The notes beneath the pieces are model-generated. The model had not been told where the DNA came from. It saw only the letters and a list, made by a program, of their open reading frames with translations, and ran no database searches. From Planctomycetota bacterium (GTDB lineage: Bacteria; Planctomycetota; UBA8108; UBA1146), in contig CBFIET010000122.1 of NCBI GenBank assembly GCA_965661685.1, forward strand, positions 93,106 to 157,105: DNA of 64,000 nucleotides, given 5' to 3'. Of this stretch, positions 1-24,566 are shown piece after piece; the first letter of the stretch is position 1; every line of letters begins with the position of its first letter. The position numbers and the translations under genes are program-made.

Positions 1-687
1 ATGGCCCTGGCAAGAAAACTCGGCAAGTATCCGATCCTGGTCAAGGATTCACCAGGTTTCCTGGTCAACCGTTTGCTCTTGCCGTACCTCGATGCGGCCT
101 CGAGATTATTGCTCGCCGGAGTCAGCGGCTCACACATCGACAAGGTCGCCAGAGCTCACGGACTTCCGATGGGCCCTTTTCGTTTGATGGACGAGGTGGG
201 ACTCGATATCGGGATCGAGGTTCAGGAAACGCTGCATGCTGCCTTCGGAGAGAGAGCGGCGTCCTCGCCGATGCTGGTGAAGATGGTCGAGAAGGGCTGG
301 CTTGGCAAGAAATCAGGAGTTGGCTTTTACCGCCATGGAGGTCGTGATTCCACCTGGAACGGTGACATCGCTCATATGATCCGTGTGCAGCACTCCACCA
401 GGAGCGAGGCCCAGATCATCTCATCCCTGATCGATCCGATGATCGACGAGGCGGCACGCTGCCTCGATGAAGAAGTGGTCGCCGATGCAGGACTTCTGGA
501 TCTTGCGATGGTGATGGGAACAGGATTTCCTCCTCATCTTGGAGGACCGCTGCGGGCTGCCGATGCAGAGGGGCTCGATGTCATCGAGAAGAGGCTCCGG
601 GCAGCCCATGAAGATGGATCGGCCCGGAGCCCCTGTGAAGGCCTCGTCGATCGAGCCCGACGAGGCGTTGGTTTTTACAGTAGTTGA
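1..687 (+). CDS. 3-hydroxyacyl-CoA dehydrogenase, C-terminal domain portion (5' end probably outside window)
   Basis: Translation KYPILVKDSPGFLVNRLLLPYL...MLVKMVEKGWLGKKSGVGFY matches the C-terminal dimerisation region of FadB/FadJ-type 3-hydroxyacyl-CoA dehydrogenases. ORF begins at nt 1. Confidence 0.7.
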   Translation: MALARKLGKYPILVKDSPGFLVNRLLLPYLDAASRLLLAGVSGSHIDKVARAHGLPMGPFRLMDEVGLDIGIEVQETLHAAFGERAASSPMLVKMVEKGWLGKKSGVGFYRHGGRDSTWNGDIAHMIRVQHSTRSEAQIISSLIDPMIDEAARCLDEEVVADAGLLDLAMVMGTGFPPHLGGPLRAADAEGLDVIEKRLRAAHEDGSARSPCEGLVDRARRGVGFYSS

Positions 688-5149: not shown

Positions 5150-6678
5150 AGTTCGCGGTTGCCCAGCAGCCGCTTGACGATGTCATCCCTGCTGGCATTC
5201 CGAGCCGCACCGATGGCGGCATCCTGCCAGCGCAATGCATCGGCGTGGCGACCACTCGCGGCCAGTAGCATCGCCTTGCTCTCCACCTCTTCCAGCGTCG
5301 TCTGATTCGCCAGCAGTTCTTCGATTTCCGCGAGAGACTGCTCGATCTCGCTGGCGGTCGGATTCTCTGATGTTGCGAGCAATCGGGCGTGCATCGACAC
5401 GAGACGCCGGTTCCGTCCGGTTGCAGAGAGTCCCTCGACACACACCCTCAGCGCCTCCTCGGTCAAATCCATTCGTATGAAGCACACCGCCTCCGCAAGC
5501 CACGCTGCACTCTGGCCGGGAAGTACGGTACGTACACGCCTCATCTCCTGAGCTGCGGTGTCGAACTTCTTGAGCCTCCTGAGGGCATTGGCTCGATTGA
5601 ATCGGGCATCGGTATTGGCAGGATATGCGAGAAGAGCGCGGTCATAGCACTCGATGGCTGCCTCGTCATCTCCACGAGCGGCATGAATCACACCGATGTC
5701 GAACCACGCGGTTGTCGAGGAGGAATCGAGGCGAAGTGCTTCCTGGTAACAAACGATCGCTTCGGGATATCGCTTCAGTTTAGCGAGGGCAGATCCCATG
5801 TTGAGATGTGCGGTAGATGCATCAGGAGCCGCTCTCACCGCCATCTCGAACTGCTCCAGCGCCTTGTCGTAATATCCTTCCTTGAAGAAAGTGGTACCAC
5901 GATTGAGAGGAATTCTCGCTCCGATGGGTCGAGATCGAACATCGGCAAGCCAGCGATCGGGCACCCTTGGAAACGCATCCCCTCGAGACTTCATCTGCCG
6001 TTCTGCTTCATCGGTTCTGCCAGTATCACGCAGCGCCAGTCCGTACGGATAGCGGACTCCAGTGGCTCCTGGAGACAACCTCAGCGCTTCCTCCAGGTAG
6101 ATCACCGCCTGTTGTGGGTCATCCGCCTGCAGTGCCAGGCGTCCGAGTCCGGCAAGGGCCTGGGCGCAGAGGGGATCGACATTCAACATCCTCTGGAAGT
6201 GGGCGATGGCTGCGGCGTCTTGCCCTTGCTGACGCTGCAATTCAGCCAGGGCAGCAAGTGTAGGCATGTGATCCGGCTTCTCCTCCAGCACCACTCGATA
6301 GAGGGAGATCGCCTCCTGCACGTTGCCAAGATCCGCTTCGATTCGTGCCAGCAGATATTTCCACCGGGTTTGCCGGGGATCTTCCTCGATGGCGATCCGG
6401 TAAAGAGAAGTTGCCATCAGCAGCAGGTCATATCCGTGGTAGGAGATGGCGACATCTCCGATCACATTTGAACGCTGCTCAGCTGTGGAGTCGCCAGGAA
6501 TCGAATCGAGACGGGAGTACTCTTCTCTCAGATGATCGGCAACATTCGCCTCGAGTCCCAGCAGTGGTGGAGGGGGGGGCCAGCGGGAAGGATCGCTGCA
6601 GCCGGCAATTACCACGCAACACAACATCCAGCCAGCCGTGATGACACTCCATGACCTGTAAGGTTGCCTCTTCACCAT
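5026..6678 (-). CDS. TPR-repeat lipoprotein
   Basis: N-terminus ...VVIAGCSDP (lipobox-like). Multiple 34-aa TPR-like units (AxxxYxxALxxxP pattern repeated). Start overlaps the stop of the upstream FG-GAP gene, indicating an operon. Acidic S/E tail. Confidence 0.65.
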   Translation of the reverse strand: MVKRQPYRSWSVITAGWMLCCVVIAGCSDPSRWPPPPPLLGLEANVADHLREEYSRLDSIPGDSTAEQRSNVIGDVAISYHGYDLLLMATSLYRIAIEEDPRQTRWKYLLARIEADLGNVQEAISLYRVVLEEKPDHMPTLAALAELQRQQGQDAAAIAHFQRMLNVDPLCAQALAGLGRLALQADDPQQAVIYLEEALRLSPGATGVRYPYGLALRDTGRTDEAERQMKSRGDAFPRVPDRWLADVRSRPIGARIPLNRGTTFFKEGYYDKALEQFEMAVRAAPDASTAHLNMGSALAKLKRYPEAIVCYQEALRLDSSSTTAWFDIGVIHAARGDDEAAIECYDRALLAYPANTDARFNRANALRRLKKFDTAAQEMRRVRTVLPGQSAAWLAEAVCFIRMDLTEEALRVCVEGLSATGRNRRLVSMHARLLATSENPTASEIEQSLAEIEELLANQTTLEEVESKAMLLAASGRHADALRWQDAAIGAARNASRDDIVKRLLGNRELYSRGFPASDPWPEEESSSSPPSGEVESSEDSGEASQDTSP

Positions 6679-12439: not shown

Positions 12440-12909
12440 CGAGCAATGGATTTTGTTTCATCATCGCGCGTTTCACCATCCTTCTCATCATCGTCGGCGG
12501 CTGTGCCCACGTTCCTGAAGTCGATCGACACTTCAAACGACACCATGCACATGAAACCGTTCGCTACTTCCGCTACGCCATCGATGCTGGCCAGTACGAA
12601 GCCGCCTACAGGTGCCTTTCCGCCAGCAGTCAGACGCAGGTATCGCCGCTGGCATTCGAGGCGATGTTGCGCTTTGTCGATGTACCTGAACTCGGGGGGA
12701 TCGGACTGCGCTGCATGCTGGTCGATTCCACCGTCGACTCCCGAGCAGAGGTGGTCGAGGCAGGACAGCCGCAGAGATGGGTCACACTCGTATGGTCTTC
12801 CGAAGAGAGTTACATCGAGTACTCTCTCTTCCTCCAACCTAACGAGGATGACCAGTGGGAGATCGACCTGCTCGCCATCCGTGGAGTGGATCTGAGTGGG
12901 GGCCCCTGA
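12436..12909 (+). CDS. hypothetical lipoprotein
   Basis: ATGA overlap with the upstream gene. Leader ILLIIVGGCAHV (lipobox). No known domain recognised. Confidence 0.45.
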   Translation: MTSNGFCFIIARFTILLIIVGGCAHVPEVDRHFKRHHAHETVRYFRYAIDAGQYEAAYRCLSASSQTQVSPLAFEAMLRFVDVPELGGIGLRCMLVDSTVDSRAEVVEAGQPQRWVTLVWSSEESYIEYSLFLQPNEDDQWEIDLLAIRGVDLSGGP

Positions 12910-14042
12910 TGGAATCGATCTATCTCGATTTCAACGCCACTACTGCGCTGCATCCACAAATCGCTCACGACATGTCCCAGTGGATCAAGCAGGAACTACC
13001 CGCCAATCCGTCGAGTCTTCATCAACATGGACGTGAGGCTCGATGCCAGCTGGAGAACGCCCGCGATGAAGTTGCCGGCTACCTGCAGGTGGATGCTGCC
13101 GAGATCCACTTCACCAGTGGTGGAACCGAATCGAATAACCTCGCCTTGCTGGGAATCTCACCCGTCGACTCCCCGCTACTGGTCGGAGCAACCGAGCATC
13201 CATCGATCCTTGAACCGGCGAAAAAGCAGTGGAAAGCAGGGAGACCTGGCTCAGTACTGCCCGTCGATGGTCGCGGCAAGATTGTCGATTTCGAGGTGAT
13301 CCCCGGCGCTCTTTATTCGATCCAGTGGTACAACAACGAAACGGGCGTAGCCCAGGACCTTCAGGGGATTTCCGGCCACATCCACGACGGTGGCGGTTTC
13401 CTGCATATCGATGGCGCACAGGGTTTTTTCCGGGACTCGACGCCGATTCCATCCCTCGCCATCGACGCGGCCACCATCACAGGTCACAAGTCATTTGGTC
13501 CCGTCGGAGCAGGGGCACTGTGGGTTCGAAATGGTCTTCTCATCGACCCGGTGCTGGTCGGCGGCCCCCAGGAGAAGAAGATCCGCCCCGGCACCGAGAA
13601 TCTGCTGGCGATTCGCGGCCTGGGAGCACTGGCAACCCTCGCCAGCCAGCAACCGTTGTGGGATCACGCGCATCTCCGAGAGTGTCGAGCCCAGTTGATC
13701 GATTCGCTGCAGAAGATCGCTGATACCAGGATCATCGAACATACCGTCGACGACTGGCCTGGCTGCATCCACGTTTCATTTCTCGACATTCATGCCGAGA
13801 CGTTGCTGGTGAGACTGGATATGGAGGGGATCTCCGCCTCCAGTGGCTCCGCCTGTTCTTCAGGTGCCCGTGAACCGAGCCACGTCTTGAAGGCGATGAA
13901 CATCGATCAGCAGTGGATTCGCGGAGCGATTCGCCTGTCCCTCGGCCCTCAGATCGATCGCACCCACATCAAAACGGTAGCGGAAAAGCTGACCACCATC
14001 GTCAACGATCTACGCAACCGCGACCTCTCCGCCAGTTCCTGA
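12909..14042 (+). CDS. cysteine desulfurase (class V aminotransferase, IscS/NifS family)
   Basis: MESIYLDFNATTALHP..., ITGHKSFGPVGAGAL (PLP-lysine region) and SSGSACSS active-site cysteine loop. Start overlaps the upstream stop by 1 nt. Confidence 0.85.
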   Translation: MESIYLDFNATTALHPQIAHDMSQWIKQELPANPSSLHQHGREARCQLENARDEVAGYLQVDAAEIHFTSGGTESNNLALLGISPVDSPLLVGATEHPSILEPAKKQWKAGRPGSVLPVDGRGKIVDFEVIPGALYSIQWYNNETGVAQDLQGISGHIHDGGGFLHIDGAQGFFRDSTPIPSLAIDAATITGHKSFGPVGAGALWVRNGLLIDPVLVGGPQEKKIRPGTENLLAIRGLGALATLASQQPLWDHAHLRECRAQLIDSLQKIADTRIIEHTVDDWPGCIHVSFLDIHAETLLVRLDMEGISASSGSACSSGAREPSHVLKAMNIDQQWIRGAIRLSLGPQIDRTHIKTVAEKLTTIVNDLRNRDLSASS

Positions 14043-14049
14043 ATTAGAA

Positions 14050-14078
14050 ATCGGGATCCCGCCAGGCGGGATCCCGAT
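14050..14078. terminator. perfect 13-bp stem/3-nt loop hairpin between convergent genes (possible bidirectional terminator)
   Basis: ATCGGGATCCCGC-cag-GCGGGATCCCGAT immediately after the iscS-like stop and 33 nt after the end of the convergent actin gene. Flanking T-richness is weak on both strands. Confidence 0.4.
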
Positions 14079-14110
14079 AGAGAAGGGGGATGACTTGTTT
14101 CGGTGCAGAT

Positions 14111-15208
14111 CTACTTCCGCATCTGCTGCCAGTACTCTGACGGCATCTCCTGGGCGAGTTTCAGAGCTCCTTGCGCTCCGGCGTACACTGCGTCGTCGAC
14201 GATGGTCACGCGACCTCCGCCCAGTTCCTGCAGTCCTCTCTCCAGTGCTTCCTGAAGACCGAATACCTGCGAACCACCGCCACTGACGATGACCCTGTTG
14301 CGGATCTTGTGCTGGAACTCGGGATCGAAGGTGGCAACCAGCGACTGAATTCCGCCGGTGATCGAAGGGATCAACTCCTCGACTGCCTGACGAATCTGGT
14401 CGGTGATATCGATCTCGGTCGGCTTTCCAGCGACCGGGAAGGTCACCAGTGCCCGCTTGTCGCTATCCACCACGCTGCTGAAGCGCTCCTTGGCCTTCTT
14501 GACCATGTTGTGTGTGAACTGCACGGCGGGGTGAGCCTCCTGGATCAACTTCATCAGCTGGCGATCGACGTAGTTTCCTGCCCGGAACAGGGTCACCTGG
14601 TCCTCGGCGTCGGGCAGGCTGCCCGCCATCCGGCACAGGTCGATGGTTCCCGCTCCGATGTCGATGACGATGGCGTTCTCCAGGGCGTCGAGGGCATAGG
14701 CAACCGCAAACGGCTCCGACACCACCATGACTCCCTCGATACCCGCCTCACGTGCCAGATCGACGATCGCTTGCTTGTTCTCTCTGGTCGCTTCTGCCGG
14801 GGCTCCGATGACGGCACACACCGCCTGATCGGGACGGGGGTTACACGACTGACGAAGGGCACTGAGAAGCGTGACTCCCGCCTTCCTCGACAGTTCCTTG
14901 GCGGAACCGTCCATCTCGGTGTAGGCGAGGTTGCCGTCCTTGAGAGGGAAACAACAGTTCAACGCCAGTCGATTCTCGTGAACCGAATCTCCTACCAGCG
15001 TGGCCGCGCCCAGTACCTTTGCGGAGACACTGTCCTTGGGCCAGCCGACCAGGCTCGCCATCACGTCTCTCGATCCATTGGATCCGGCGATGGCACTGCG
15101 ACTGGTTCCCAGGTCGATTCCCACGTGCAGGATACTGTTCTTCACATCGATCCGTGGCGTGGCTACGTCTCTGGTGTTCTTTGCTTTCAAGTTGTTTTCC
15201 GGGGTCAT
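14111..15208 (-). CDS. MamK-family actin-like ATPase (orphan, no magnetosome context)
   Basis: Colinear similarity to MamK over the whole length: VGIDLGTSRS (phosphate-1), VGWPKD, CAVIGAP, VVSEPFAVAY, IDIGAGTIDLC (phosphate-2), QVTLFRAGNYVD, IVSGGGS (adenosine), GALKLAQEMPSEYWQQM C-terminus. SD AGGAAGAAGAAGG upstream. Confidence 0.8.
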   Translation of the reverse strand: MTPENNLKAKNTRDVATPRIDVKNSILHVGIDLGTSRSAIAGSNGSRDVMASLVGWPKDSVSAKVLGAATLVGDSVHENRLALNCCFPLKDGNLAYTEMDGSAKELSRKAGVTLLSALRQSCNPRPDQAVCAVIGAPAEATRENKQAIVDLAREAGIEGVMVVSEPFAVAYALDALENAIVIDIGAGTIDLCRMAGSLPDAEDQVTLFRAGNYVDRQLMKLIQEAHPAVQFTHNMVKKAKERFSSVVDSDKRALVTFPVAGKPTEIDITDQIRQAVEELIPSITGGIQSLVATFDPEFQHKIRNRVIVSGGGSQVFGLQEALERGLQELGGGRVTIVDDAVYAGAQGALKLAQEMPSEYWQQMRK

Positions 15209-15210
15209 GA

Positions 15211-15903
15211 CTACCTACCTTCTTCTTCCTGCGAATCTGCAGACAGAGCACGAAGTGCTACGTTTGCCTGAAACAGTTGGTCCAGGAGTTCTGATTTCTT
15301 CGAATCAAATGGGGATTGCACCTCCAGAGCATCGATCCGTGGATCTCCACTGCTGGTGAGTGCGTTGTCGGTGGCCTGCAAGGCCAGGGTCAGTTCTTCT
15401 ATTCTCATCTCGAGCCTTTCGACCTGGTTTCTCTGGGAATCTCTTACCGTGGCAAGTTCTGATCGCCAATCCCGGGCGATCAGCTTGGAGAGTTGCACCA
15501 GTAGTGCTTTTTCCCGCTGGCCCAGTGCCGATTTCTGACCGCCTGCTGGGGCGGCTTCCTCCACCTGACGCTGTTTCGGACCAGGAACCTGAATTCTTGG
15601 TTTCGCGTCGACCGTTGCTTGCCCTGCTCCAGGCTCGACACTTCCTGGTGCTGCTGCCTTGAGATCCTCTCCCAGGCAGGCGTGAGCCCGCTGCAGCAGT
15701 CTCTGCCTCGCTTCAGCGGAGATCTCCACATCACCGAGGGTCTCGAGCAGAGCACGAGCCACCGCCTTGCGAGCGGCCTCCTGGAACTGACTCTGAGAGA
15801 CGACTCGCATCTTGCGAATCCCCTTCTCCTGGAGCTGTTCGAGGTGCTGAACGGAACTGTGGGGGAGCGACAGGGGTCCCTCGCTGGGATCGGCTTGCTG
15901 CAT
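15211..15903 (-). CDS. coiled-coil protein, upstream partner of the MamK-like gene (start chosen at ATG 15903 with GGAAAGGA SD; ORF extends to 15987)
   Basis: Heptad-rich translation (LEQLQEKGIRK..., ERLEMRIEELTLALQATDNAL). Its stop TAG lies 2 nt before the MamK-like ATG. No known domain recognised. Confidence 0.55.
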   Translation of the reverse strand: MQQADPSEGPLSLPHSSVQHLEQLQEKGIRKMRVVSQSQFQEAARKAVARALLETLGDVEISAEARQRLLQRAHACLGEDLKAAAPGSVEPGAGQATVDAKPRIQVPGPKQRQVEEAAPAGGQKSALGQREKALLVQLSKLIARDWRSELATVRDSQRNQVERLEMRIEELTLALQATDNALTSSGDPRIDALEVQSPFDSKKSELLDQLFQANVALRALSADSQEEEGR

Positions 15904-16316
15904 GTCGTTCCTTTCCTGGGGTGAAGGGTCTGTTTCCATGGCACTGCAGAGATAGGAGGCAAACGGCGTGCCCGGTCTCCGCACCACTTGAACAGCGCTC
16001 TGGAGGGGGCCCTGAAGAAGATGGAGCGGCGATTCCGTGCCAAAGCGGGACCCACTGTCGAGATCATTGACAATCTCGAGTCGTGCAGATCGATACTATT
16101 GGGGGGTGCCGAAAAGTGGCCTCAGGTGCTACAATATCTATGTCTGACCGTATTTCCGCCCGGAATTGCAGTCGGTATTGAGGAAGAAGAGCCCTGCTTT
16201 TACGCAATACGTCCCCCGTAGAGGCCTATAATGCGTTTCGGCCGTGCGCCTTGCTTTTGCCCCGAGCAACTTCTTCTTCCCGTCCGAAACCTCGAGCATC
16301 GACAGGAGAAATTGCC

Positions 16317-17627
16317 ATGACATTACGCCTCCCCCTGCTGGTCGGCTGGATCACCATCCTCGCCCTCGTCACTTCGACGAGCGTGGCACAGGATTACAAC
16401 TTTCACTTCGACACCACCGCCAGCGGACCTACCGGCTCCGTAATCACCACCCGGGCGCTGATCGACAATCCCGGGGGTCCCCTCGCTGGCTGGTCGATCG
16501 GGATCTGCCACGATGACAACATGGATTTCCTCGAGATCGCCGACGGCAATGCCCCGATGACTGCCAACGCTGGCGGTCCTGCTGACTTCGTCCAGACCAA
16601 TCACTACCCGGGATTCGGAGCCAATCAGGGTGTCGTGGTCAACTTCGTCGGAACAAACGAACTTCCCATCGCCACTGATCATGAAGCCATCACGATGCAG
16701 ACGATGCTGCTTGGACCTGACGACACCACCTCGTCGATGTCCTTCTGCAATGCCGTATTCCCCGGAGAAACGAGCGAATTTGAAAACCTCGCAGTGGCTC
16801 CAGGGGGTATCGCCATCGTTCCCACCATGATGGATGGAATCGTCGAGATCGGCGGATTGCTCCCCTTCGAGTTGAGCGCGGTTCCTTCCGCTCCTTCCGT
16901 CGAGCAGGGCAACTCCATCGACGTCCAGATCATGCTCAATGCACCGGCAGAGAACTACGGTTTCTCGCTGGGATTCGCCCATTCGGGGGCGTCCCTCACC
17001 CTCGTCGGTGCGGATATCGGTAGCGCACTCGCGGTTCTCAACGGTGGCTCCGGTCCGGAATACCTGACCCTGGACCTTGACCCCGAAGGAGCCAACGGCC
17101 TGATCGTCGCCTGCCTCTACTCCGTCTCCTCGCTGCTCGCGCTTCCCGCCGGAAACGGACAGGAACTGGTGGTGGCCCACTACGATGCGCCATCTACCGC
17201 CCCTCTGGGAATCACCGGGCTCAACTTCAGCGAGGACCTGGTGCCACAGTCACCTTCTCCGCCGACCGCGATCGTCATCTCTCTGGGCCAGACCTCCGGC
17301 CCGGTAGTGACCTCGGGAACCAGCATCGAGATCCTCGAAGGAGTGGTTGGAGTTCAGTTCCAGCGTGGCGACTTCGATGGAAGCGGATCCCTCAACCTGG
17401 GTGATCCCGTCAACCTGCTCGGCTACATGTTCAACGGTGGGGCAGCCCCCCTGTGCGAGAAAATCGGCGACATCGACGACAGCGGCAGCATCGTGCTGGG
17501 AGATCCGGTACAGCTGTTGACCTACATGTTCTCCGGTGGTTCTGCTCCGGCAGAACCGTTCGATCAGTGCGGAATCGACCCGACTGAAGACGATCTGACC
17601 TGTGAGGAGTTTGACGCCTGCCCCTGA
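16317..17627 (+). CDS. secreted protein with two cohesin-like modules and a C-terminal type-I dockerin
   Basis: ATG 16317 (MTLRLPLLVGWITILALVTSTSVAQ signal). Segments GWSIGICHDDNMDFLEIADG and NSIDVQIMLNAPAENYGFSLGFAHSGASLTLVGADIG resemble cohesin beta-sandwich signatures. C-terminal DFDGSGSLNLGDPVNLLGYMF + DIDDSGSIVLGDPVQLLTYMF dockerin repeats. Confidence 0.6.
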   Translation: MTLRLPLLVGWITILALVTSTSVAQDYNFHFDTTASGPTGSVITTRALIDNPGGPLAGWSIGICHDDNMDFLEIADGNAPMTANAGGPADFVQTNHYPGFGANQGVVVNFVGTNELPIATDHEAITMQTMLLGPDDTTSSMSFCNAVFPGETSEFENLAVAPGGIAIVPTMMDGIVEIGGLLPFELSAVPSAPSVEQGNSIDVQIMLNAPAENYGFSLGFAHSGASLTLVGADIGSALAVLNGGSGPEYLTLDLDPEGANGLIVACLYSVSSLLALPAGNGQELVVAHYDAPSTAPLGITGLNFSEDLVPQSPSPPTAIVISLGQTSGPVVTSGTSIEILEGVVGVQFQRGDFDGSGSLNLGDPVNLLGYMFNGGAAPLCEKIGDIDDSGSIVLGDPVQLLTYMFSGGSAPAEPFDQCGIDPTEDDLTCEEFDACP

Positions 17628-17668: not shown

Positions 17669-18187
17669 ATGCGGCTCACTTCCTTCCCATGGCATCATCC
17701 ACTAAGATGCCGGAAGGAGGTCGAGGCCGTGGTCGAAACCGGTGCCATCGCGATTCGTTATCCACTTGAGAAATCCGCCCCCTCTCATCATGCAGAACCG
17801 CATCATGCAGAACCGCATCATGCAGAACCGCATCATCGAGAGCGGCATCCTTCAGATCCAGCGCCCCAATCACTGCTTGCCGATTCTCCATCTGCACAGA
17901 TTCCGCCGCTGGCAGGGGCGACCGTGACAGACTCCACCTCCGGCCTCAACAGTGGCGAAGCAAGCGACGATCCGGGTGTCATCGTGCTGCGCTGGTCGGT
18001 ACAGCCGGGAGAATCGATCGAGGCCGATCAGGAGTTACTGGTGCTAGCAGTGGGCAGCGAGGTCCAGGTGATCCGAGCGCCGGTTCCAGGTGTCCTCCTC
18101 AATCACTGGACGGAGGAGGGGGATCGACTCGGCCGGGGAGAAACCCTTGGATGGATCCGCCCCAGCTCCTCCGAGGCTGCGACGTAG
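17669..18187 (+). CDS. hypothetical protein with HHAEP tandem repeat and lysine-less biotin/lipoyl-like hybrid-barrel domain
   Basis: HHAEPHHAEPHHAEPHH repeat. C-terminal VIVLRWSVQPGESIEADQELLVLAVGSEVQVIRAPVPGVL resembles a biotinyl/lipoyl-attachment fold but lacks the modifiable Lys. Confidence 0.5.
   Translation: MRLTSFPWHHPLRCRKEVEAVVETGAIAIRYPLEKSAPSHHAEPHHAEPHHAEPHHRERHPSDPAPQSLLADSPSAQIPPLAGATVTDSTSGLNSGEASDDPGVIVLRWSVQPGESIEADQELLVLAVGSEVQVIRAPVPGVLLNHWTEEGDRLGRGETLGWIRPSSSEAAT
17786..17839 (+). repeat. perfect 15-nt tandem repeat (catcatgcagaaccg x3, plus a degenerate 4th unit) inside the CDS
   Basis: Directly visible at 17786-17830. Encodes HHAEP x3. Confidence 0.9.
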
Positions 18188-18653: not shown

Positions 18654-19865
18654 TCAGGTGCGACCCACCTTGGCCCGGATCGGCCGATGGGTCACCTCGG
18701 AAGTTCCGCGCAGCAGTCCATCCGGATGGATCACCTCGACCGGATGGCGCGCGATGGAAACGACGATCCCCAGCGCCGCCAGCGACACGACGATGGAGGT
18801 TCCTCCATAGGAAACGAAGGGGAGGGGAAGACCCGTCACCGGCAGCAGGCCCACCGTCATCGACAGGTTGATGGCGGCCTGAAACCCGATCTGACTCGCC
18901 AGGCCTACTGCGACCAACCGCCCGAACGGATCTCGACAGTTCCATGCAACTCCCAGCATCGTCCACACCAGGACCAGGTATCCGATCACCACGGAAAGGG
19001 TTCCGATCAGTCCCAGTTCTTCGCCGATGACGGAGAAGATGAAATCGTTGTGGTCCTCCGGGACGTAGCCCAGATCATGGTGGCTTCCCATGTGCAGCCC
19101 CTTGCCGGTGGGGCCTCCGCTACCGATGGCGATGATCGATTGCGCCACCTGATAGCCTCCTTCCGATTCGCCGGAAACTTCACCGTACCCGACATAGGAG
19201 AGGATTCGATCCTTCTGATAGTCTCTCAATAGTGGCCAGCTGGCCGGGCCACCAATCACCGCCGCCAACACGATCAGTAGCAAAAACCTCCGCATCGAGA
19301 TCCCCGCAACCCACAGCATCATCACCGTGGTGGGGATCAGGATCAGCGCGGTGCCCAGGTCTGGCTGGGCTGCGATCAGCAGGAAAGGAATCGTGGCGAA
19401 TCCCACCCAGCGAACGATTTGCAGCCAACGGTCTACACCTTCACCGGGTCGAATCAGGTGAGCGAGGAACAGAACCGTGGATATCTTCGCAAGTTCCGAA
19501 GGTTGCAATCCGATTCCACCGAAGCGTATCCAGCGAACCACACCCGCTCCGGTGGCCCACTTCCAGAGCAGCAACAGCACCAGAAGTGCCACCGATGCAG
19601 CAAAGAAAACCTGTGCAACCTGACGGAATCGGCGTGGATGGACGAGGGAAATCGCCATCATGGCGACAACTCCCACGATGATCTTCTTGAGGTGGCTTGA
19701 TGCGTAGGGACCCGGGAATCCTGTCTCCGGTCCGTCCGCAGCACTGTGCACGAAGATGGTTCCCACCATCAGCAGCCAGACTCCTGCAAGAACCAGCAAG
19801 ATGGCGGGGCCAGCCCAACCATTCTTCCAGCCAGCGATCCAGTGCGTCAGATGAAGCGACGTCAT
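18654..19865 (-). CDS. rodA: rod shape-determining protein RodA (SEDS family); start at ATG 19865 overlapping the mrdA stop (ATGA), not the 574-aa ORF start
   Basis: MTSLHLTHWIAGW... with multiple TM segments. Conserved SEDS C-terminal region ...GGPTGKGLHMGSHHDLGYVPEDHNDFIFSVIGEELG. Confidence 0.85.
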   Translation of the reverse strand: MTSLHLTHWIAGWKNGWAGPAILLVLAGVWLLMVGTIFVHSAADGPETGFPGPYASSHLKKIIVGVVAMMAISLVHPRRFRQVAQVFFAASVALLVLLLLWKWATGAGVVRWIRFGGIGLQPSELAKISTVLFLAHLIRPGEGVDRWLQIVRWVGFATIPFLLIAAQPDLGTALILIPTTVMMLWVAGISMRRFLLLIVLAAVIGGPASWPLLRDYQKDRILSYVGYGEVSGESEGGYQVAQSIIAIGSGGPTGKGLHMGSHHDLGYVPEDHNDFIFSVIGEELGLIGTLSVVIGYLVLVWTMLGVAWNCRDPFGRLVAVGLASQIGFQAAINLSMTVGLLPVTGLPLPFVSYGGTSIVVSLAALGIVVSIARHPVEVIHPDGLLRGTSEVTHRPIRAKVGRT

Positions 19866-22015
19866 CGTCGTAACTCCATCCCTCGGTGCTCCTCGAGCCA
19901 GTCGAGTATTGAAGCGAGCAGTGGCGCACAGGCTTCCCCGCCATGCTGGGGCACATCCTGCAAGGAGATGGCAAAGGCAAACTTCGGCTCCACTACCGGG
20001 GTGAATCCGATCAACCATGCATGGTAACTGGGATCGGAGGAGATCTGAGCAGATCCTGATTTCACTGCCACGTCGAACCCCGAAAGACCGTAAGAAGATC
20101 GGGATGCGGTTCCTCCACGATCCCGTACCGCAGACACCATCCCATCGATCACACTTTCGAAATGACGCAACTCGATGGCTGGTTCCGCGGGTTCGCCGTC
20201 GATCGTTGCCACGACCTTGACCCCGGGAGAACTGCCACGACAGGCGATGCTCAACGCCACCCTCGCCATCTGCAGTGGCGTCACGGTGAAGCCGCGACCG
20301 ATGGCGGTGCCCACCGGGTTGGCCCGGGGTTTCAGGCCGATCGCCTCGGAGGCGATCCCGCTCCTGCTCGATCGCCACAGGCCCAGCGATTCGCCGGTAG
20401 CGATCATCTTGTCGATTCCCAGCCTCTGACCCATCTTGTAGAAATAAACGTTACAAGAGCGGGCCAGAGCCTCCGACAGATTGACGGAAAGGCCAGCGGG
20501 ATGATTGGTGCAGCGGCTCCGATCGGGCCGTCCAGGATCGAGCACACCGTTACAGACGATCTCGTCGTCAGCGGTGACCAATCCCTCCTGTAGAGCAGCG
20601 AGCCCGACCACCGTTTTGAAGGTTGAGCCGGGATCGACCGGCCACGAACTGACTCGATCATGAAACCAACCATCTCGAGATAGACTACGAGATCTGTACA
20701 GTTCACGGTCCTTGTAGACTTCCATCCCTTGCTGGGGGAGGGAGGCCCAGCCGAAAGCAGCGCCCGTATTGACGTCGAGCATCACGATGGCACCAGTTCG
20801 TACTCCCTGCGCTTGCATCTGATCGATACAAAAGCGGCTCAGTTGCGAGTCGATGGTGAGCTGGGTGTCCGATCCCTTGATGGCGTCTGCCACATCAAGA
20901 GCGGATCCAATCGATCGCCTGCGTTGATCGAGGATGCGAACCTCGGCGCCGGGAACTCCCCTGAGATCTTCCTCGAGAACCGACTCCAGCCCCGACCTTC
21001 CGACACGATCAGCGCTGTGATGAGAATACCTTCGAACCGCCTCGAAGACCCTCAGGTCGCGGAGAACCAGCCGGTCGATGATGGGTTCCTGCCGTGATTT
21101 CCAGGCGTCGACGATTTCCTCGCTGGGTAAGCCGGTATGTCCCAGCAATTGACCGAGAAAGGGGTCCAGTGGATGTACCCGGTCGTGGACTTCTTCCAGG
21201 TGAATACCAGGCCACTTTTCCGGTTCAGTACTGATGGCTACGACCAGAGAAGGGGGAACATCTTCGTGGAGGGGATGGCGCTGACGCCTGAAGACCCACT
21301 CTCGTTCCTGCAATTCCACAGCCGGATCCTGAACTCGGTCGTATGCCAGCTCGACCTTGCTCCACAGTTTCCCGGTCTCCAGTTCCAACACCTTTTCCAT
21401 CTTCCTGATACCGATCTCCCCGGCGAACAGGCCATCCGGATCGATGAAAATCGTGTAACTCTGACCAGCCTTGCTGGAGCGGATTCCCGGAAAGTCCTCG
21501 GGGCGTTTGGCGATGGCTCGGGCCACCGCTCTACCACACTTCGGATCGACACGGGTCAACCAGGGGTGCTCCTGATGATCGATATCGGTGGCGAACCTTG
21601 CCCTGATCTGCTCACGAGCTCCCTGAAGGGAGCTCCACAGGATCTCTTCATTCCAGGGGTAGCTGTCGTCAGAACTTCGCAGGATCTTGGTCAACCGCCG
21701 GGCGACCCACCGTACAGGTTCCAGTTCCGAAAGGAGAAAGGTGGCCCTCACAGCCGGTTCATCCCTGGCCAGAATGACTCCCCGAGCATCGACGATCTGT
21801 CCCCGAGGCGCGGGAGTGTAACGAATTGATCTGTGGATGCTGGATGCTCGTAAGGCATGGTCACGCCAGTCCATCCCCTGCAATTGCACAAGTCGAGCTG
21901 CGATACCCACAGACATCAGTAGGAACAGCACAGCGATGGGGATGATCCGGTTCCGCTGCATCAGATCCCCCCGTGGGATTTCGGAGTGCAGCGATTCACA
22001 GTGGATACCTCGCAC
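19862..22015 (-). CDS. mrdA: penicillin-binding protein 2 (elongation transpeptidase); alternative start at Met19 (~21961)
   Basis: N-terminal TM MQRNRIIPIAVLFLLMSVGIAARLVQLQ. Transpeptidase motifs STFK (GSTFKTVVG), SCN (ARSCNVYFY), KSG (VAVKSGSAQ). Confidence 0.85.
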   Translation of the reverse strand: MRGIHCESLHSEIPRGDLMQRNRIIPIAVLFLLMSVGIAARLVQLQGMDWRDHALRASSIHRSIRYTPAPRGQIVDARGVILARDEPAVRATFLLSELEPVRWVARRLTKILRSSDDSYPWNEEILWSSLQGAREQIRARFATDIDHQEHPWLTRVDPKCGRAVARAIAKRPEDFPGIRSSKAGQSYTIFIDPDGLFAGEIGIRKMEKVLELETGKLWSKVELAYDRVQDPAVELQEREWVFRRQRHPLHEDVPPSLVVAISTEPEKWPGIHLEEVHDRVHPLDPFLGQLLGHTGLPSEEIVDAWKSRQEPIIDRLVLRDLRVFEAVRRYSHHSADRVGRSGLESVLEEDLRGVPGAEVRILDQRRRSIGSALDVADAIKGSDTQLTIDSQLSRFCIDQMQAQGVRTGAIVMLDVNTGAAFGWASLPQQGMEVYKDRELYRSRSLSRDGWFHDRVSSWPVDPGSTFKTVVGLAALQEGLVTADDEIVCNGVLDPGRPDRSRCTNHPAGLSVNLSEALARSCNVYFYKMGQRLGIDKMIATGESLGLWRSSRSGIASEAIGLKPRANPVGTAIGRGFTVTPLQMARVALSIACRGSSPGVKVVATIDGEPAEPAIELRHFESVIDGMVSAVRDRGGTASRSSYGLSGFDVAVKSGSAQISSDPSYHAWLIGFTPVVEPKFAFAISLQDVPQHGGEACAPLLASILDWLEEHRGMELRR

Positions 22016-22475
22016 TCTTCAGGAACGGCCTCACGATATCGAGTACTGGCAACAGGATCGCTGTCACCACCGCACTCAAAAGCAACGCCGGAAACATCAT
22101 TTGAAAGGTGGGAAAGACGCCGGAAAGCATCGATTCCTGCACGCTGACGCCGATCAGCAGTGACGGCAAGATGATCTGAATACGACGATAAGGATGATGG
22201 GGATCGAACACGGTCTTGAGGAACCGAACGGTGAGTACCGTGCACAGCAATGGAACCACGGCATCGACGGGAGTTGTGATTCCGCCAAGACACCTGTGGG
22301 CAGCGACCACCACAATCATCAGCAAGAGACGTGGCCAGCGATCTACCAGTGCCATCCAGCACACGAAGATCAGCAGCGGATCGGCCATCCCGAGGGCTGG
22401 TTGCAACAATGGGCGAAACGCCACCCCCGTGAAGGTTGCCAGGATCATGATGAGGAACAACCATGAGAACCTCAC
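21996..22475 (-). CDS. mreD: rod shape-determining protein MreD (polytopic membrane protein)
   Basis: 159-aa protein, hydrophobic throughout. Positioned between mreC and mrdA with overlaps at both ends. Confidence 0.55.
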   Translation of the reverse strand: MRFSWLFLIMILATFTGVAFRPLLQPALGMADPLLIFVCWMALVDRWPRLLLMIVVVAAHRCLGGITTPVDAVVPLLCTVLTVRFLKTVFDPHHPYRRIQIILPSLLIGVSVQESMLSGVFPTFQMMFPALLLSAVVTAILLPVLDIVRPFLKSARYPL

Positions 22476-23182
22476 TGCGATCCACCTCTCGTCAGCGGCA
22501 CCAGTACCAGGACTTCCTGTACCTGTTTCAAACCCTGGCTGAGGAGGATCTTCGATTCTCGGTGGGGGATCCTGACCTCGCCAACGACACCGATCACCAG
22601 CCCCTCGGGAAAGACCGTGCCGCCACCATGGGTACGAATTACATCGCCGACGGAGAGGTCGATGTACTCCATGCGCAGGCGAGGATGCCCATGTCCTGGC
22701 CCAGGTCCACCTGCGAAGATCCCGGCACCGCCCTCCTCATCGAGGAAGGGAACCACGAAAGCAGGATCATCCGCCAGTTGAACCCTCGACCACCCCTGCT
22801 CGGAACGGACCACCTTTCCGATCACTCCGGAAGCTCCGATGATTCCCATACCCGGAGCGATCTCGACCTCTGATCCTCGATCAATACGGGCGGATGATCT
22901 CCTCGGATGAGGATCGAAGTGGGGGGTCAATCGTGCAGGGACCAGTTGATACAGCGTCCCTGCGAAGTCCGATGCGAGGTAGCGATCGATCAGATCCTGG
23001 CGCTCGATGAGTGCATCTTGTGAATCGCTGATCAGTTGCGTTCTCTGGAGAGCTTGTTCCAGAAGCTGGATGCGAACACGATCGGAGCCGGATGAGGACA
23101 CGAGGGGCTGAAGCCCGTAGCCGATCAGGGCCAGGACCAACCAGCAACCGATCGCCCAGTAAGCGCGTTCGATGCGCTTCAA
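22472..23182 (-). CDS. mreC: rod shape-determining protein MreC
   Basis: N-terminal TM followed by a coiled-coil (LLEQALQRTQLISDSQDALIERQDLIDRY), then C-terminal beta domains GDVIRTHGGGTVFPEGLVIGVV typical of MreC. Confidence 0.8.
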   Translation of the reverse strand: MKRIERAYWAIGCWLVLALIGYGLQPLVSSSGSDRVRIQLLEQALQRTQLISDSQDALIERQDLIDRYLASDFAGTLYQLVPARLTPHFDPHPRRSSARIDRGSEVEIAPGMGIIGASGVIGKVVRSEQGWSRVQLADDPAFVVPFLDEEGGAGIFAGGPGPGHGHPRLRMEYIDLSVGDVIRTHGGGTVFPEGLVIGVVGEVRIPHRESKILLSQGLKQVQEVLVLVPLTRGGSQ

Positions 23183-23214
23183 GTGACTCCCGTTCGGACC
23201 TGTCTATACGGTTC

Positions 23215-24252
23215 CTAGTAATCGTCGTCGACGGAGTCGAGGACGGAGGAATACTGATCCAGTTTCTCGAGGAATATGGCGGTTCCACGGGCCACGCAGG
23301 TGAGTGGGTCGTCTGCCACCCGCACCGGCAATCCGGTCACCTTCCGGATCGTCTCATCGAGACCGCGCAGTAACACGCCGCCACCACAGAGGACGATTCC
23401 ACGCTCCACCAGATCGGCACACAGTTCGGGGTCAGTCGTTTCAAGTGTCGACTTGATCCCTTCGATGATCTTGTCGACGGGGGGCTGCAGTGCCTCCCGG
23501 ATCTCTTCACTGGTGATTCGTGCACTGCGAGGAAGATTGCCGATGAGATCGCGCCCCTTCACCTCCATCTCGAGTTCCTCTTCGAGTGGGTAGGCGGACC
23601 CGATCCCGATCTTGATCTGCTCCGCAGTCAGCGGTCCAACCAGGATGTTATAGGTGTCCTTCATGTACTTGACGATCGCTTCGTCCATGTCATCTCCGGC
23701 GACGCGCAACGACACGCTGGTCACCACATCTGCCAGGGACAGTACTGCGATTTCTGTGGTTCCACCGCCGACATCCACGACCATGCTTGCGATCGGCTCT
23801 TCGATGGGCAATCCAGCACCGAGACCGGCAGCTCGCGGCTCTTCCACGAGGTAAACCTTGCGAGCACCGGCACGCTCCGCAGAGTTGTAGACGGCACGCT
23901 TCTCCACTGCTGTGATCCCGCTGGGAACAGCGATCACAACACGTGGGCTGAAAAATCTGGATCGGTTTTGCACCCTCGTGATGAAGTACTTGAGCATCGC
24001 CTCGGTGATCTCGAAATCGGCGATGACTCCATCCCGGAGGGGACGGACCGCTTCGATGGAGGTGGGGGTTCTGCCCATCATCTCCTTGGCGACACTGCCG
24101 ACAGCTCTTCCATCGAGAAGTACCTGGTTGGTACCTGCTTTGACCGCCACCACCGATGGCTCGCTGATGACGATTCCTCGCCCACCAACACAAACGAGGG
24201 TGTTGGCAGTTCCAAGATCGATACCAAGATCAGTAGAAAACTTCCCCACCAA
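23215..24252 (-). CDS. mreB: rod shape-determining actin MreB (start likely TTG 24252 or GTG 24249; the ORF to 24423 has no plausible upstream Met)
   Basis: LVGKFSTDLGIDLGTANTLVCVGGRGIVISEPSVVAV... Full-length MreB with all actin-fold motifs. Confidence 0.9.
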   Translation of the reverse strand: MVGKFSTDLGIDLGTANTLVCVGGRGIVISEPSVVAVKAGTNQVLLDGRAVGSVAKEMMGRTPTSIEAVRPLRDGVIADFEITEAMLKYFITRVQNRSRFFSPRVVIAVPSGITAVEKRAVYNSAERAGARKVYLVEEPRAAGLGAGLPIEEPIASMVVDVGGGTTEIAVLSLADVVTSVSLRVAGDDMDEAIVKYMKDTYNILVGPLTAEQIKIGIGSAYPLEEELEMEVKGRDLIGNLPRSARITSEEIREALQPPVDKIIEGIKSTLETTDPELCADLVERGIVLCGGGVLLRGLDETIRKVTGLPVRVADDPLTCVARGTAIFLEKLDQYSSVLDSVDDDY

Positions 24253-24566
24253 GGCCTGTGTGAAATTCTGTGCGATACGGAAAACCAAGATATGATCTCC
24301 TCGTCCGATCCCTGCCGGCACCGTGGTGCTGGCATCGAGATCAGTTTCCCCTTGAGGACTCCTGTCCTCTTTCCCACTTCGAACTCCCGCAAATTCCGGC
24401 AGGCACTCGCACCTGCTTGCCATGATATTGCATCACGGACGGGATTCCCTCACTGCTGCGCCCTGTATCATAAGCAGGAAAATGGCCGGAGGCGAGGGAC
24501 TAACACCGATCCTTGTCGCAGGAAGGAATGCGCTCGACCGCCGATCTCCGATGCGGACAGGCGCAA

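Follow-up and report, generated by a model that had tools for sequence, protein, structure and literature searches.

MamK is the textbook example of a bacterial actin that positions an organelle. For its relatives in non-magnetotactic bacteria, neither function nor partners are, to our knowledge, known. The locus analyzed here raises a question: what may a MamK-type actin carry in a marine planctomycete, and which protein would attach the cargo? We studied a stretch of 64 kb (the window), for which a first-pass annotation had proposed a MamK-family actin and an adjacent partner. According to our reading, in which we have moderate confidence, the two genes constitute a chromosomal operon for a cytoskeletal filament and a dedicated, motif-tagged adaptor (Table 1).

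Table 1. Features of the actin-partner locus (positions refer to the window)
Feature	Position	Strand	Remarks
MamK-family actin-like ATPase gene	14111..15208	(-)	365 aa, ATG start
Partner (putative adaptor) gene	15211..15903	(-)	230 aa, directly 5' of the actin gene
Partner N-terminal helical module	15673..15861	(-)	residues about 15-77, KGIRKMRVV...AARKAVARALLE, conserved
Partner long helix	15352..15528	(-)	residues 126-184, REKALLVQLSKLIARDWRSELATVRDSQRNQVERLEMRIEELTLALQATD, conserved (alignment A2)
Partner C-terminal motif helix	15250..15291	(-)	residues 205-218, ELLDQLFQANVALR
Perfect 14-nt inverted repeat	14050..14078		ATCGGGATCCCGCC/GGCGGGATCCCGAT, separating the actin gene from the convergent cysteine-desulfurase gene
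Divergent intergenic region	15904..16250		347 bp, 5' of the partner gene

Family assignment of the actin

The NCBIfam model of MamK (NF040964) matched the actin with 395.6 bits (E 1.6e-118) over model positions 1-331 of 335, which is 4.4 bits below its curated cutoff of 400 bits. The remaining models scored 177.9 bits for BeeR (cutoff 530), 71 for MreB (NF010539, 71.2 vs. a cutoff of 293; TIGR00904, 55.3 vs. 365.75), 23.5 for ParM (cutoff 417) and 20.5 for FtsA. Using phmmer, the solved MamK structures 5LJW/5JYG reached 275.6 bits (E 5e-81), compared to 101.7 bits for BeeR and at most 44.8 bits for MreB. Residues 24-363 aligned over the full length to solved MamK chains (residues 10-341), confirming the colinearity proposed before. 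The blocks quoted in its favour (VGWPKD, VVSEPFAVAY, IDIGAGTIDLC, QVTLFRAGNYVD, IVSGGGS and EMPSEYWQQM) were all present in the translation, and each aligned to a MamK block. The amino acid identity was 42.4% to MamK (over 330 residues), 31% to BeeR and 27% to the MreB of the window itself. The AF2 model (pLDDT 87, residues 1-23 forming a disordered N-terminal tail) had its best Foldseek match in the MamK filament subunit 5LJV_A (TM 0.96, rmsd 1.9 A). Furthermore, PGAP/NCBI annotates a relative with 61% identity as 'MamK family actin-like protein'. The actin is a member of the MamK family, and MamK is its closest characterised relative.

The actin has retained intact phosphate-1 (GIDLGTS), phosphate-2 (DIGAGTID) and adenosine (SGGGS) motifs together with the catalytic Glu in VVSEPF, where E165 corresponds to E143 of MamK in the alignment. 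Across our alignment A1 the nucleotide-binding and catalytic motifs were invariant or nearly so. The protein would be expected to polymerise with ATP, like MamK and saltatorellin. An antisense ORF (14171..15271, (+) strand) shadows the actin gene; it was found in 75 loci only through conservation of the actin.

In a neighbor-joining tree (Kimura-type distances, 200 bootstraps) with BeeR and MreB as outgroups, the window actin and its relatives formed a clade with 99% bootstrap inside the MamK family, apart from both magnetotactic MamK clades (95% and 100%) and with BeeR outside the family group; the backbone bootstraps of this tree were just 5-25%. Model scores, solved-structure matches, Foldseek and the tree agree that the actin groups with neither MreB nor FtsA. 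A separate true mreB, as annotated before, is located at 23215..24423 and scored 464 bits with Pfam MreB_Mbl vs. 78.7 bits for the window actin.

No magnetosome-type gene was found within the 64-kb window. Here, the ORFs were compared with the genes located up to 8 kb from mamK in nine loci that we regarded as magnetosome clusters (queries including MamM/B-type CDF, MamE, MamN and FeoB), and only the actin and MreB matched, in agreement with the first-pass annotation. Only two of the nine (L080 and L030) were confirmed as magnetosome loci by model hits (MamE 1063, MamM 451, MamN 709 bits); L026 has FeoB and CDF-cluster genes, and the other six were assigned by MAG names or shared neighbour clusters. 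A MamK in the strict sense, encoded beside mamB/M, mamE/O, mamI/L/Q and mamA, is thus not what the 64 kb contain. The window actin shares family, fold, ATPase motifs and the E143 equivalent with MamK of Magnetospirillum (5LJV, 5LJW, 5JYG) but differs in its location outside a magnetosome cluster, in its score just under the cutoff and in forming a clade of its own.

MamK-like actins of non-magnetotactic bacteria, including planctomycete relatives, have been described already. These are saltatorellin (bioRxiv 10.1101/817700), BeeR (PMC11929497) and actins of Beggiatoaceae (bioRxiv 10.1101/2022.04.11.487978). Because of them and of the relative named by PGAP, the 'orphan MamK' is less new than initially implied. 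Saltatorellin of the Saltatorellota is likewise MamK-like and accompanies MreB as a second actin; its lineage is related to planctomycetes and non-magnetotactic. When expressed in E. coli and M. gryphiswaldense, it assembles into filaments. Its C-terminus, ...YWEQLK as given by the published reverse primer, resembles ...EYWQQMRK of the window actin. However, the exact match is found in many actins of a planctomycete group here named 'cluster A' (47-49% identical to the window actin) and not in the window clade. The primer-encoded termini of saltatorellin, the MamK-like protein of Saltatorellus ferox Poly30, suggest a possible relationship to the window actin. The passages of the preprint that we considered mention neither a partner gene nor the motif. 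BeeR, a three-stranded tubular actin of Verrucomicrobiota (PMC11929497, PDB 8R2N), is similar to the window actin in being MamK-related, in its non-magnetotactic PVC host and in a disordered N-terminal tail, with a Foldseek TM of 0.82 and an identity of only 24-31%.

The partner gene and the operon

The partner ORF is open from a GTG (15211..15987). We consider the ATG at 15903, preceded by AGGAAAGGAA, as the start, which agrees with the deposited protein P0121 and with the N-termini of partner homologues. The junction to the actin gene reads ...GAAGAAGGTAGG TAG TC ATG. Only 2 nt thus separate the partner stop from the actin ATG, and the last partner codons contain a purine run resembling an SD sequence. 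Neither Pfam nor NCBIfam gave a match to the partner, so that the earlier description of a domain-less 230-aa protein whose stop almost touches the actin start was accurate. The 2-nt gap, the SD-like run and a hairpin 3' of the actin gene support a two-gene operon, at the end of which the inverted repeat forming this hairpin probably acts as a bidirectional terminator. Since the divergent intergenic region had no match to the sigma-70 consensus, it is only presumed to hold the partner promoter.

A partner homologue was found directly 5' of the actin gene in all seven relatives examined, including L001-L003 and L083-L085, and the pair was conserved down to 58% actin identity. The interpretation as a MamK-family actin with a partner is therefore supported: the three findings named beforehand as speaking against it (grouping with MreB or FtsA, nearby magnetosome genes, a partner not kept in relatives) were all absent.

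The adjacent genes belong to a chromosomal housekeeping neighbourhood of PGK, IMPase, cysteine desulfurase and elongasome genes. Pfam and NCBIfam identify the product of the convergent gene (12855..14042) as an Aminotran_5/NifS-IscS-like cysteine desulfurase, as the label iscS had implied. The 458-aa ORF at 16251..17627 is indeed divergent. Its 'cohesin/dockerin' label did not hold: as no Pfam match was obtained at E<=0.01, the label comes down to C-terminal D-x-D-x-S-G repeats recognized by eye. Both neighbours, the iscS-like gene and the gene of the secreted protein, are conserved, and the synteny in the lineage extends to PGK, IMPase and BFN. Because this general synteny includes unrelated housekeeping genes, we do not regard the conserved neighbours as evidence of a functional linkage and rejected such a link.

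The AF2 model of the partner consists of helices plus disorder (pTM 0.24). Within the N-terminal module two helices are predicted (37-55 and 63-77, pLDDT 73-86), followed by a disordered Pro/Ala-rich linker (residues 80-123, pLDDT below 50). Matches of the partner HMM in L018, L016, L020 and L024 covered the N-terminal module. The long helix (pLDDT 85-94) is likely a coiled-coil or dimerisation element, and residues 126-223 were aligned by hhalign to the cluster A partners with 97.7% probability (E 2.5e-12). A C-terminal amphipathic helix is predicted for residues 201-224 (pLDDT about 83-85). In total, 30 sequence homologues of the partner were identified, all of them from Planctomycetota MAGs where the source organism was named. 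The full-length family is narrow, since only 41 clusters matched in a profile search of 1.84 billion representatives.

In the C-terminal helix, 14 consecutive columns (ELLDQLFQANVALR) did not vary among 27 homologues, although these share only 42-88% identity with the window partner overall. Synonymous codon changes were frequent across this region while the residues were kept. A nucleotide-level element such as a leader or RBS was considered as the reason for the conservation and rejected, given these synonymous changes and the amidase genes, in which the corresponding motif is encoded at a distance of about 1 kb from the start of the actin gene.

Distribution of the motif across MamK-family loci

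The core of the helix can be described as hydrophobic-L-x-x-hydrophobic-(F/Y/V)-x-x-N-hydrophobic-x-L. For the strict definition we used the regular expression [LMIVF][LMIVFA]xx[LIVM][FVIYMLH]xxN[LMIVF]x[LIM], in a gene on the same strand directly 5' of the actin and near a cytoplasmic terminus of its product. The window partner is motif-bearing in this sense: LLDQLFQANVAL was found at residues 206-217 of 230 (F211, N214 and L217 within the C-terminal peptide SKKSELLDQLFQANVALRALS), and the motif occurs only this once in the whole 64-kb window.

Among 80 loci from many phyla, the motif was found in the gene directly 5' of most MamK-family actins. The strict expression matched 53 of 78 upstream genes. 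Among 663 conserved background ORFs it matched 5, of which four are extra partner-like paralogues, leaving effectively 1/663. The Asn was invariant in all strict instances (52/52). With a motif profile, 60 of the 78 upstream genes outscored the best background ORF, although 52 of these 60 had trained the profile, and part of this enrichment is circular because the seeds built this second profile. The independent test was a search of 4,222 ORFs with a profile derived from window-clade and cluster A partners only. Here, the partners of other clades and the amidase N-termini ranked at the top.

The proteins carrying the motif C-terminally are coiled-coil, GGDEF and PilZ proteins as well as small proteins of magnetosome clusters. 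In 25 loci of Desulfobacterota, Gammaproteobacteria, Nitrospirota, Acidobacteriota, Gemmatimonadota, Rhodothermales and others the upstream gene encodes a membrane-anchored Amidase_3 protein (N-acetylmuramoyl-L-alanine amidase). In these, the motif is located at residues about 10-40 in the N-terminal cytoplasmic tail, ahead of an R/K-rich stretch and a TM helix, a placement consistent with a contact between proteins in the cytoplasm. The motif is not universal, since the alphaproteobacterial mamK loci L080 (with a MamJ-like neighbour) and L077 lack it upstream. Natural fusions of motif and actin were not found among 120 homologues; matches of the expression in these actins correspond to the internal PLxDGNL actin core. 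We found no report of the motif in the literature.

Small coiled-coil genes are located directly 5' of mamK in L030, L033, L045, L046, L021 and L026. Their products (144-173 aa) carry the same motif at the end (e.g. ERKGLLNLIVEENKRLRGL), while the remainder is unrelated to the window partner at BLAST level. A homologue search with such a magnetosome-cluster protein returned only 'hypothetical protein' names. Mad10 is one candidate name. Published gene orders of deep-branching magnetotactic bacteria are mad11-mamK-mad10 (PMC7951924), Mad20-Mad10-MamK according to locus tags, and mad10-man2-mamK-man1 (PMC9376291). Deletion of mad10 causes magnetosomes to cluster, as does loss of MamJ, and Mad10 did not score with MamK in a two-hybrid screen (PMC12748827). 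The published mad/man gene orders are ambiguous on orientation.

Possible role of the motif helix

Because the invariant helix recurs beside MamK-type actins in many phyla, it probably serves as the handle by which clients are attached to the filament. Short amphipathic helices at the end of an adaptor dock on an actin-fold subunit in ParR-ParM as well as in WH2 and eukaryotic actin, and LLDQLFQANVAL may resemble WH2 sequences. We infer polymerisation of the actin, its binding by the motif and the cargo as follows: the C-terminal helix would dock on an actin subunit, the long helix of about 60 residues would dimerise the partner, and the N-terminal part would connect the filament to a cellular target. 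Adaptor-dependent attachment of cargo is established for MamJ and MamK (PMC13052382). However, in contrast to the acidic MamJ the window partner is a motif-bearing helical protein, and the MamJ-like gene of L080 has no motif.

Since the motif is found on different proteins beside MamK-family actins elsewhere, filament plus motif-tagged client may constitute a general system, with the magnetosome MamK as one specialised branch. That the helix is a general binding peptide of MamK-family actins, serving modular client recruitment across many phyla, is a tentative proposal to which we give slightly less than an even chance.

Several other explanations were considered. Instead of being an actin handle, the helix may target the membrane as the amphipathic helices of FtsA and MinD do, or it may bind a third factor such as a ParA/MinD-like ATPase, so that partner and actin would share an operon without contact through the motif. 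This is unlikely in our view, even though the motif is an amphipathic helix and a ParA/MinD-like gene lies directly 5' of the partner in some planctomycete loci. Such a gene was found in only about 11 of the 80 loci, all of which have the actin. Membrane-targeting helices conserve amphipathicity and not sequence; here, no strict instance lacks the Asn, and the family of the window partner keeps 14 residues unchanged. Additionally, the motif tail of the amidases is already membrane-anchored, and a membrane-targeting helix would therefore be redundant there.

The handle function would be compatible with a second proposal, as this concerns the cargo: a cell-wall or morphogenesis cytoskeleton, in which a second, MreB-independent actin positions envelope-remodelling activities. 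The membrane-anchored amidase as partner in 25 loci points in this direction, as do the genes rodA-PBP2-mreD-mreC-mreB at a distance of 3.4 kb from the operon in the window and in L001. Saltatorellin was proposed as a driver of shape change (bioRxiv 10.1101/817700). For the window itself we nevertheless consider this rather improbable. The partner has no envelope-related domain, TM segment or signal peptide, and in other loci the partner has a GGDEF or PilZ domain instead. The proximity of the mre genes belongs to the general synteny shared with one close relative; in L083-L085, the 6 kb analyzed upstream of the actin did not show it.

A system for DNA segregation like ParMRC, with the partner as a ParR-like DNA-binding adaptor between centromere and filament, is very improbable. 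By analogy the logic would be alike, an actin-like ATPase with a small adaptor whose C-terminal helix binds actin. However, the ParM model gave 23.5 bits against its cutoff of 417, revealing no sequence relationship. Iterated centromere-like repeats were found neither in the 347-bp upstream region nor as a repeat array in 13900-16400. The gene order is reversed (adaptor before actin) in a chromosomal housekeeping neighbourhood. Foldseek gave no PDB match to the partner model below E = 1 and no DNA-binding fold, and the clients are diverse: sister clades have the motif on amidases, GGDEF and PilZ proteins, none of them DNA-binding. Least probable of all is that the planctomycete is cryptically magnetotactic and the pair a remnant or outlier of its magnetosome gene cluster: the actin family is that of MamK, magnetosome clusters were reported in Planctomycetota MAGs (PMC7602337) and motif-bearing partners occur in magnetosome-cluster loci, but the window ORFs are unlike the mamK-flanking genes of the nine loci, the same housekeeping synteny is found in seven related genomes and the window clade is separate from both well-supported magnetotactic MamK clades.

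For the motif-tagged adaptor, the conserved and easily mutated motif of 12-16 residues offers a direct experimental entry to what the filaments carry, in planctomycetes as well as in the many phyla with the motif on a peptidoglycan amidase. It also predicts a MamK-contacting protein in deep-branching magnetotactic bacteria, in which a MamJ-equivalent adaptor is still sought. If the proposal is true, the same handle would be used by coiled-coil adaptors, GGDEF and PilZ proteins, amidase tails and small magnetosome-cluster proteins. Many non-magnetotactic bacteria would then own an actin that positions a cell-wall hydrolase, and the magnetosome cytoskeleton would have arisen late, as one specialised form of an older actin system with a general purpose.

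The actin and its distribution

As the first-pass annotation had claimed, the product of the actin ORF belongs to the MamK family. NCBIfam models scored it at 395.6 bits for MamK (cutoff 400), 177.9 for BeeR, a MamK-related actin of Verrucomicrobiota (cutoff 530), 71 for MreB (cutoff 293), 23.5 for ParM and 20.5 for FtsA. Against solved chains, phmmer gave 275.6 bits for MamK (E 5e-81, residues 24-363), 101.7 for BeeR and at most 44.8 for MreB. Identity was 42.4% to MamK, 31% to BeeR and 27% to the window's own MreB. The AF2 model (pLDDT 87, pTM 0.84; residues 1-23 disordered) matched MamK 5LJV in Foldseek with TM 0.96 and rmsd 1.9 Å, BeeR with TM 0.82 and MreB with about 0.8. In Pfam the generic MreB_Mbl model alone matched (78.7 bits). 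The nucleotide-binding motifs and the glutamate aligned to MamK E143 were retained and are conserved in the family alignment. The separate genuine mreB, also noted earlier, reached 464 bits to MreB_Mbl.

The score slightly under the curated MamK cutoff marks a divergent subgroup, not another family. The actin adds a new member to a known group, sharing its family with saltatorellin, the MamK-like actin of Saltatorellota, and lying near BeeR. The primer-derived C-terminus of saltatorellin (...YWEQLK) was identical to that of many actins of cluster A, a planctomycete group outside the window clade. A preprint describes filaments of saltatorellin in both E. coli and M. gryphiswaldense (bioRxiv 10.1101/817700), which supports polymerisation in this MamK-family branch.

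A word-indexed search with the actin found 3,549 proteins at E<=0.001 among 8,000 candidates scored. Identical or near-identical proteins came from Planctomycetota metagenome bins, and two named relatives from marine TMED and seawater bins. Scanning species-representative genomes yielded 80 actin loci (L001-L080) from Planctomycetota, Desulfobacterota, Gamma- and Zetaproteobacteria, Nitrospirota, Acidobacteriota, Gemmatimonadota, Rhodothermales, Omnitrophota and others. Neighbour joining (334 columns, 200 bootstraps) placed their actins in a single group with MamK of AMB-1 and left BeeR and MreB outside it. Bootstraps were 99% for the window clade (4 loci), 73-96% for the large planctomycete clade, 76% for the 'amidase' clade, 100% for the deep-branching magnetotactic clade and 95% for the alphaproteobacterial MamK clade; the branching order between clades was not supported (backbone 5-25%).

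The operon and the partner protein

The actin and the partner encoded upstream look like a two-gene operon. The close spacing noted before was borne out by the junction GAAGAAGGTAGG-TAG-TC-ATG, with 2 nt between the partner stop and the actin ATG; an SD-like purine run lies ahead of this ATG within the last partner codons. The ATG at 15903 is credible as partner start, since AGGAAAGGAA precedes it, the resulting protein equals the deposited P0121 and the N-termini of 26 homologues agree. No sigma-70 consensus was found upstream of the operon. The palindrome behind the actin gene includes two BamHI-like GGATCC sites. An antisense ORF spanning the whole actin gene was rejected as a product of high G+C, since its apparent 'conservation' in 75 loci only mirrors that of the actin.

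Coordinates of features in the window, the partner protein and related loci
Feature	Location	Strand	Remarks
Actin ORF	window 14111..15208	-	365 aa, ATG start
Partner ORF	window 15211..15987	-	open from GTG; 230 aa from ATG 15903
Antisense ORF	window 14171-15271	+	366 aa, rejected
Perfect inverted repeat, 14+14 nt	window 14050-14078		ATCGGGATCCCGCC/GGCGGGATCCCGAT; between actin stop and convergent cysteine-desulfurase gene
Multi-TPR protein	window 5026-6678	-	550 aa; 7.4 kb from actin gene
458-aa protein	window 16251-17627	+	N-terminal signal-like hydrophobic segment
172-aa ORF	window 17669-18187	+	threefold HHAEP repeat SHHAEPHHAEPHHAEPHHRERH
Complete elongasome cluster	window 18654-24423	-	mreB, mreC, mreD, PBP2, rodA; 3.4 kb from operon
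True mreB	window 23215..24423	-	beside mreC, mreD, PBP2, rodA
Partner N-terminal helical module	residues about 15-77		conserved
Partner linker	residues 80-123		disordered, Pro/Ala-rich
Partner long helix	residues 126-184		single, conserved
Partner spacer	between long and last helix		short, variable
Partner last helix	residues 201-224		includes E205-R218
Amidase-type loci	L031, L034, L037, L038, L040, L041, L043, L047, L049, L050, L052, L054-L056, L063, L066, L070-L072, L075, L076, L078, L079		gene ends at about 8000 in locus coordinates
GGDEF partners	L017:6819-7874; L019:6135-7901; L009:14887-15921		N-terminal domain; L009: second partner copy
ParA/MinD-like genes	L008:6344-7111; L010:3591-4364; L029:6356-7111		about 8 further loci
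Motif-ending genes beside mamK	L030:7422-7943; L033:7461-7976; L045:7290-7769; L046:7478-7951; L021:6896-7870; L026:5169-5663
Extra motif-bearing partner-like genes	L009:14887-15921; L006:10436-11566; L022:15755-16480; L021:6418-6852

The gene pair was conserved in relatives, as surveyed in six further loci. A partner homologue was found by BLAST directly upstream of the actin in L001, L003 and L002 (actins 72, 66 and 59% identical), and in L083-L085 (actins 58-62% identical) the same slot held a 221-256-aa gene without Pfam domains. All these upstream genes ended in the same motif as the window partner. The full-length partner family is narrow, with 30 homologues in a word-indexed search and 41 clusters when 1.84 billion representatives were searched exhaustively with a profile.

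The anatomy of the partner was derived from the partner alignment and an AF2 model (pLDDT 68), for which Foldseek found no related solved fold. Residues E205-R218 (ELLDQLFQANVALR) were invariant in 27 of 27 sequences, while identity of the homologues to the window protein was otherwise 42-88%. Between genomes the motif codons show synonymous differences, which places the constraint at the protein level.

A terminal helix in proteins encoded beside MamK-family actins

The motif is a short amphipathic helix of the form hydrophobic-L-x-x-hydrophobic-(F/Y/V)-x-x-N-hydrophobic-x-L, found once in the whole 64-kb window, in the partner. Among 4,222 ORFs, the window partner-family profile gave weak matches (E 6e-10 to 4e-3) in 11 further planctomycete loci, exclusively to ORFs directly upstream of the actin. 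Alignment of the window and cluster-A partner families by hhalign extended over the long helix and the motif (97.7% probability, E 2.5e-12). Inspection of the C-termini of all upstream genes revealed the pattern in nearly every clade, for example KKKELMAEIFKANLKLQK (L013), DEEILEHIFRENVALQKP (L021), ERKGLLNLIVEENKRLRGL (L045), SKLAMLKRLVEDNLSLRK (L069, Beggiatoa) and EDAMMRQVFEDNLKLREQ (L036). It was not found in the upstream gene of the alphaproteobacterial loci L080 (a MamJ-like gene) and L077.

A 26-residue profile built from window-clade and cluster-A sequences alone recovered, at ranks 16-41, partners of other clades, two amidase N-termini and a few extra partner-like paralogues. A strict regular expression matched 53 of 78 upstream genes versus 5 of 663 conserved background ORFs (181,797 residues), four of these five being partner paralogues. 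With a second profile 60 of the 78 scored above the best background ORF, 52 of them training sequences. Position-specific counts showed the Asn to be invariant (52/52 strict instances); the F/Y/V position was mostly F in soluble partners and mostly Y in amidase tails. Several kb separate the extra motif-bearing genes from the actin (in L021 the gene is 0.4 kb upstream of the partner), and they may be further clients of the same filament.

Different proteins carried the motif. In 25 loci from at least 8 phyla an Amidase_3 protein of 330-420 aa (E about 1e-44) was encoded directly upstream of the actin. Here, the motif is N-terminal (residues about 10-40, e.g. ILRGVYEENLxI), ahead of an R/K-rich and then a hydrophobic segment, so that the positive-inside rule assigns it to a cytoplasmic tail and the amidase to the periplasm. 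This arrangement suggests an uncharacterised actin system positioning a membrane-anchored N-acetylmuramoyl-L-alanine amidase, a peptidoglycan hydrolase; a search of one literature library found no paper tying MamK to such an amidase. Other partners had a GGDEF domain, and the partner at L074:5911-7860 had a weak PilZ match below cutoff and only a degenerate motif-like stretch (KMALMKEILDINRA). Such partners hint that c-di-GMP signalling takes place on these filaments. In a planctomycete sub-clade a ParA/MinD-like P-loop ATPase gene directly precedes the partner, giving the operon order ParA-like, partner, actin. Additionally, in magnetosome clusters of deep-branching magnetotactic bacteria the motif closes a small coiled-coil protein encoded directly upstream of mamK; on the published gene orders Mad10, Mad11, Man1 and Man2 are all candidate names for it.

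A cell-wall role for the family is a real possibility in view of the amidase clade and of the operon lying near the mre genes both in the window and in L001, where the elongasome cluster is syntenic, although nothing in the window partner points to the envelope. As a rival to actin docking, the motif could be a membrane-targeting helix, but this would need neither the invariant Asn nor 14 invariant residues, and would be redundant on an already membrane-anchored amidase.

Genomic context and putative function of the pair

Nine related loci were taken as magnetosome-cluster loci, six of them from MAG names or shared neighbour clusters. L080 matched the models of MamE (1063 bits), MamM (451) and MamN (709), L030 carried MamM/B-type CDF and MamN-like genes, and L026 FeoB and CDF-cluster genes. 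Of all window ORFs, just the actin and MreB matched any ORF lying up to 8 kb from mamK in the nine loci, in line with the first-pass annotation, which had seen no magnetosome genes in the 64 kb. A MamA-like protein had likewise been reported absent; the window does encode a multi-TPR protein. Since TPR proteins are ubiquitous and this one has over twice the size of MamA, there is nothing to link it with MamA. A magnetosome remnant is disfavoured for the 64-kb window by the ORF comparison, by the separate position of the window clade in the tree and by the syntenic flanks of L083-L085. A ParMRC-like segregation system is disfavoured by the low ParM score, absent repeats, chromosomal context and non-DNA-binding clients.

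Housekeeping genes surround the operon (PGK, an inositol-monophosphatase-family protein, a BFN-domain protein, RodA), including the expected convergent NifS/IscS-like cysteine desulfurase. The divergent gene, read earlier as a secreted cohesin/dockerin protein, has the signal-like segment and C-terminal D-x-D-x-S-G repeats of dockerin- or EF-hand-like appearance, but no Pfam match at E<=0.01. The same position is occupied by a 423-450-aa gene without Pfam matches in L083-L085, and L001-L003 have BLAST homologues. Both flanks of the operon are syntenic in these six genomes, and the iscS-like and secreted-protein neighbours thus have no special meaning. The 172-aa ORF matched no Pfam family; in L084 and L085 the corresponding site holds Biotin_lipoyl genes.

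Neither the co-conserved partner nor the cross-phylum motif appears to have been reported in the literature library searched, where queries on MamK and amidase, MamK-like homologues and saltatorellin found no description of either. The window encodes a MamK-family ATPase with intact catalytic motifs and a tightly coupled, co-conserved partner with a strongly constrained terminal helix. This helix is the sole element common to otherwise unrelated proteins encoded beside MamK-family actins, and always lies on a cytoplasmic terminus. The adaptor-on-filament logic proposed below parallels that of ParR and ParM. It also parallels MamJ and MamK (PMC13052382). From sequence conservation and gene context we propose that the C-terminal helix of the partner would dock on the actin subunit or filament, while the long helix would dimerise the adaptor and the N-terminal module would bind a cellular target as cargo.
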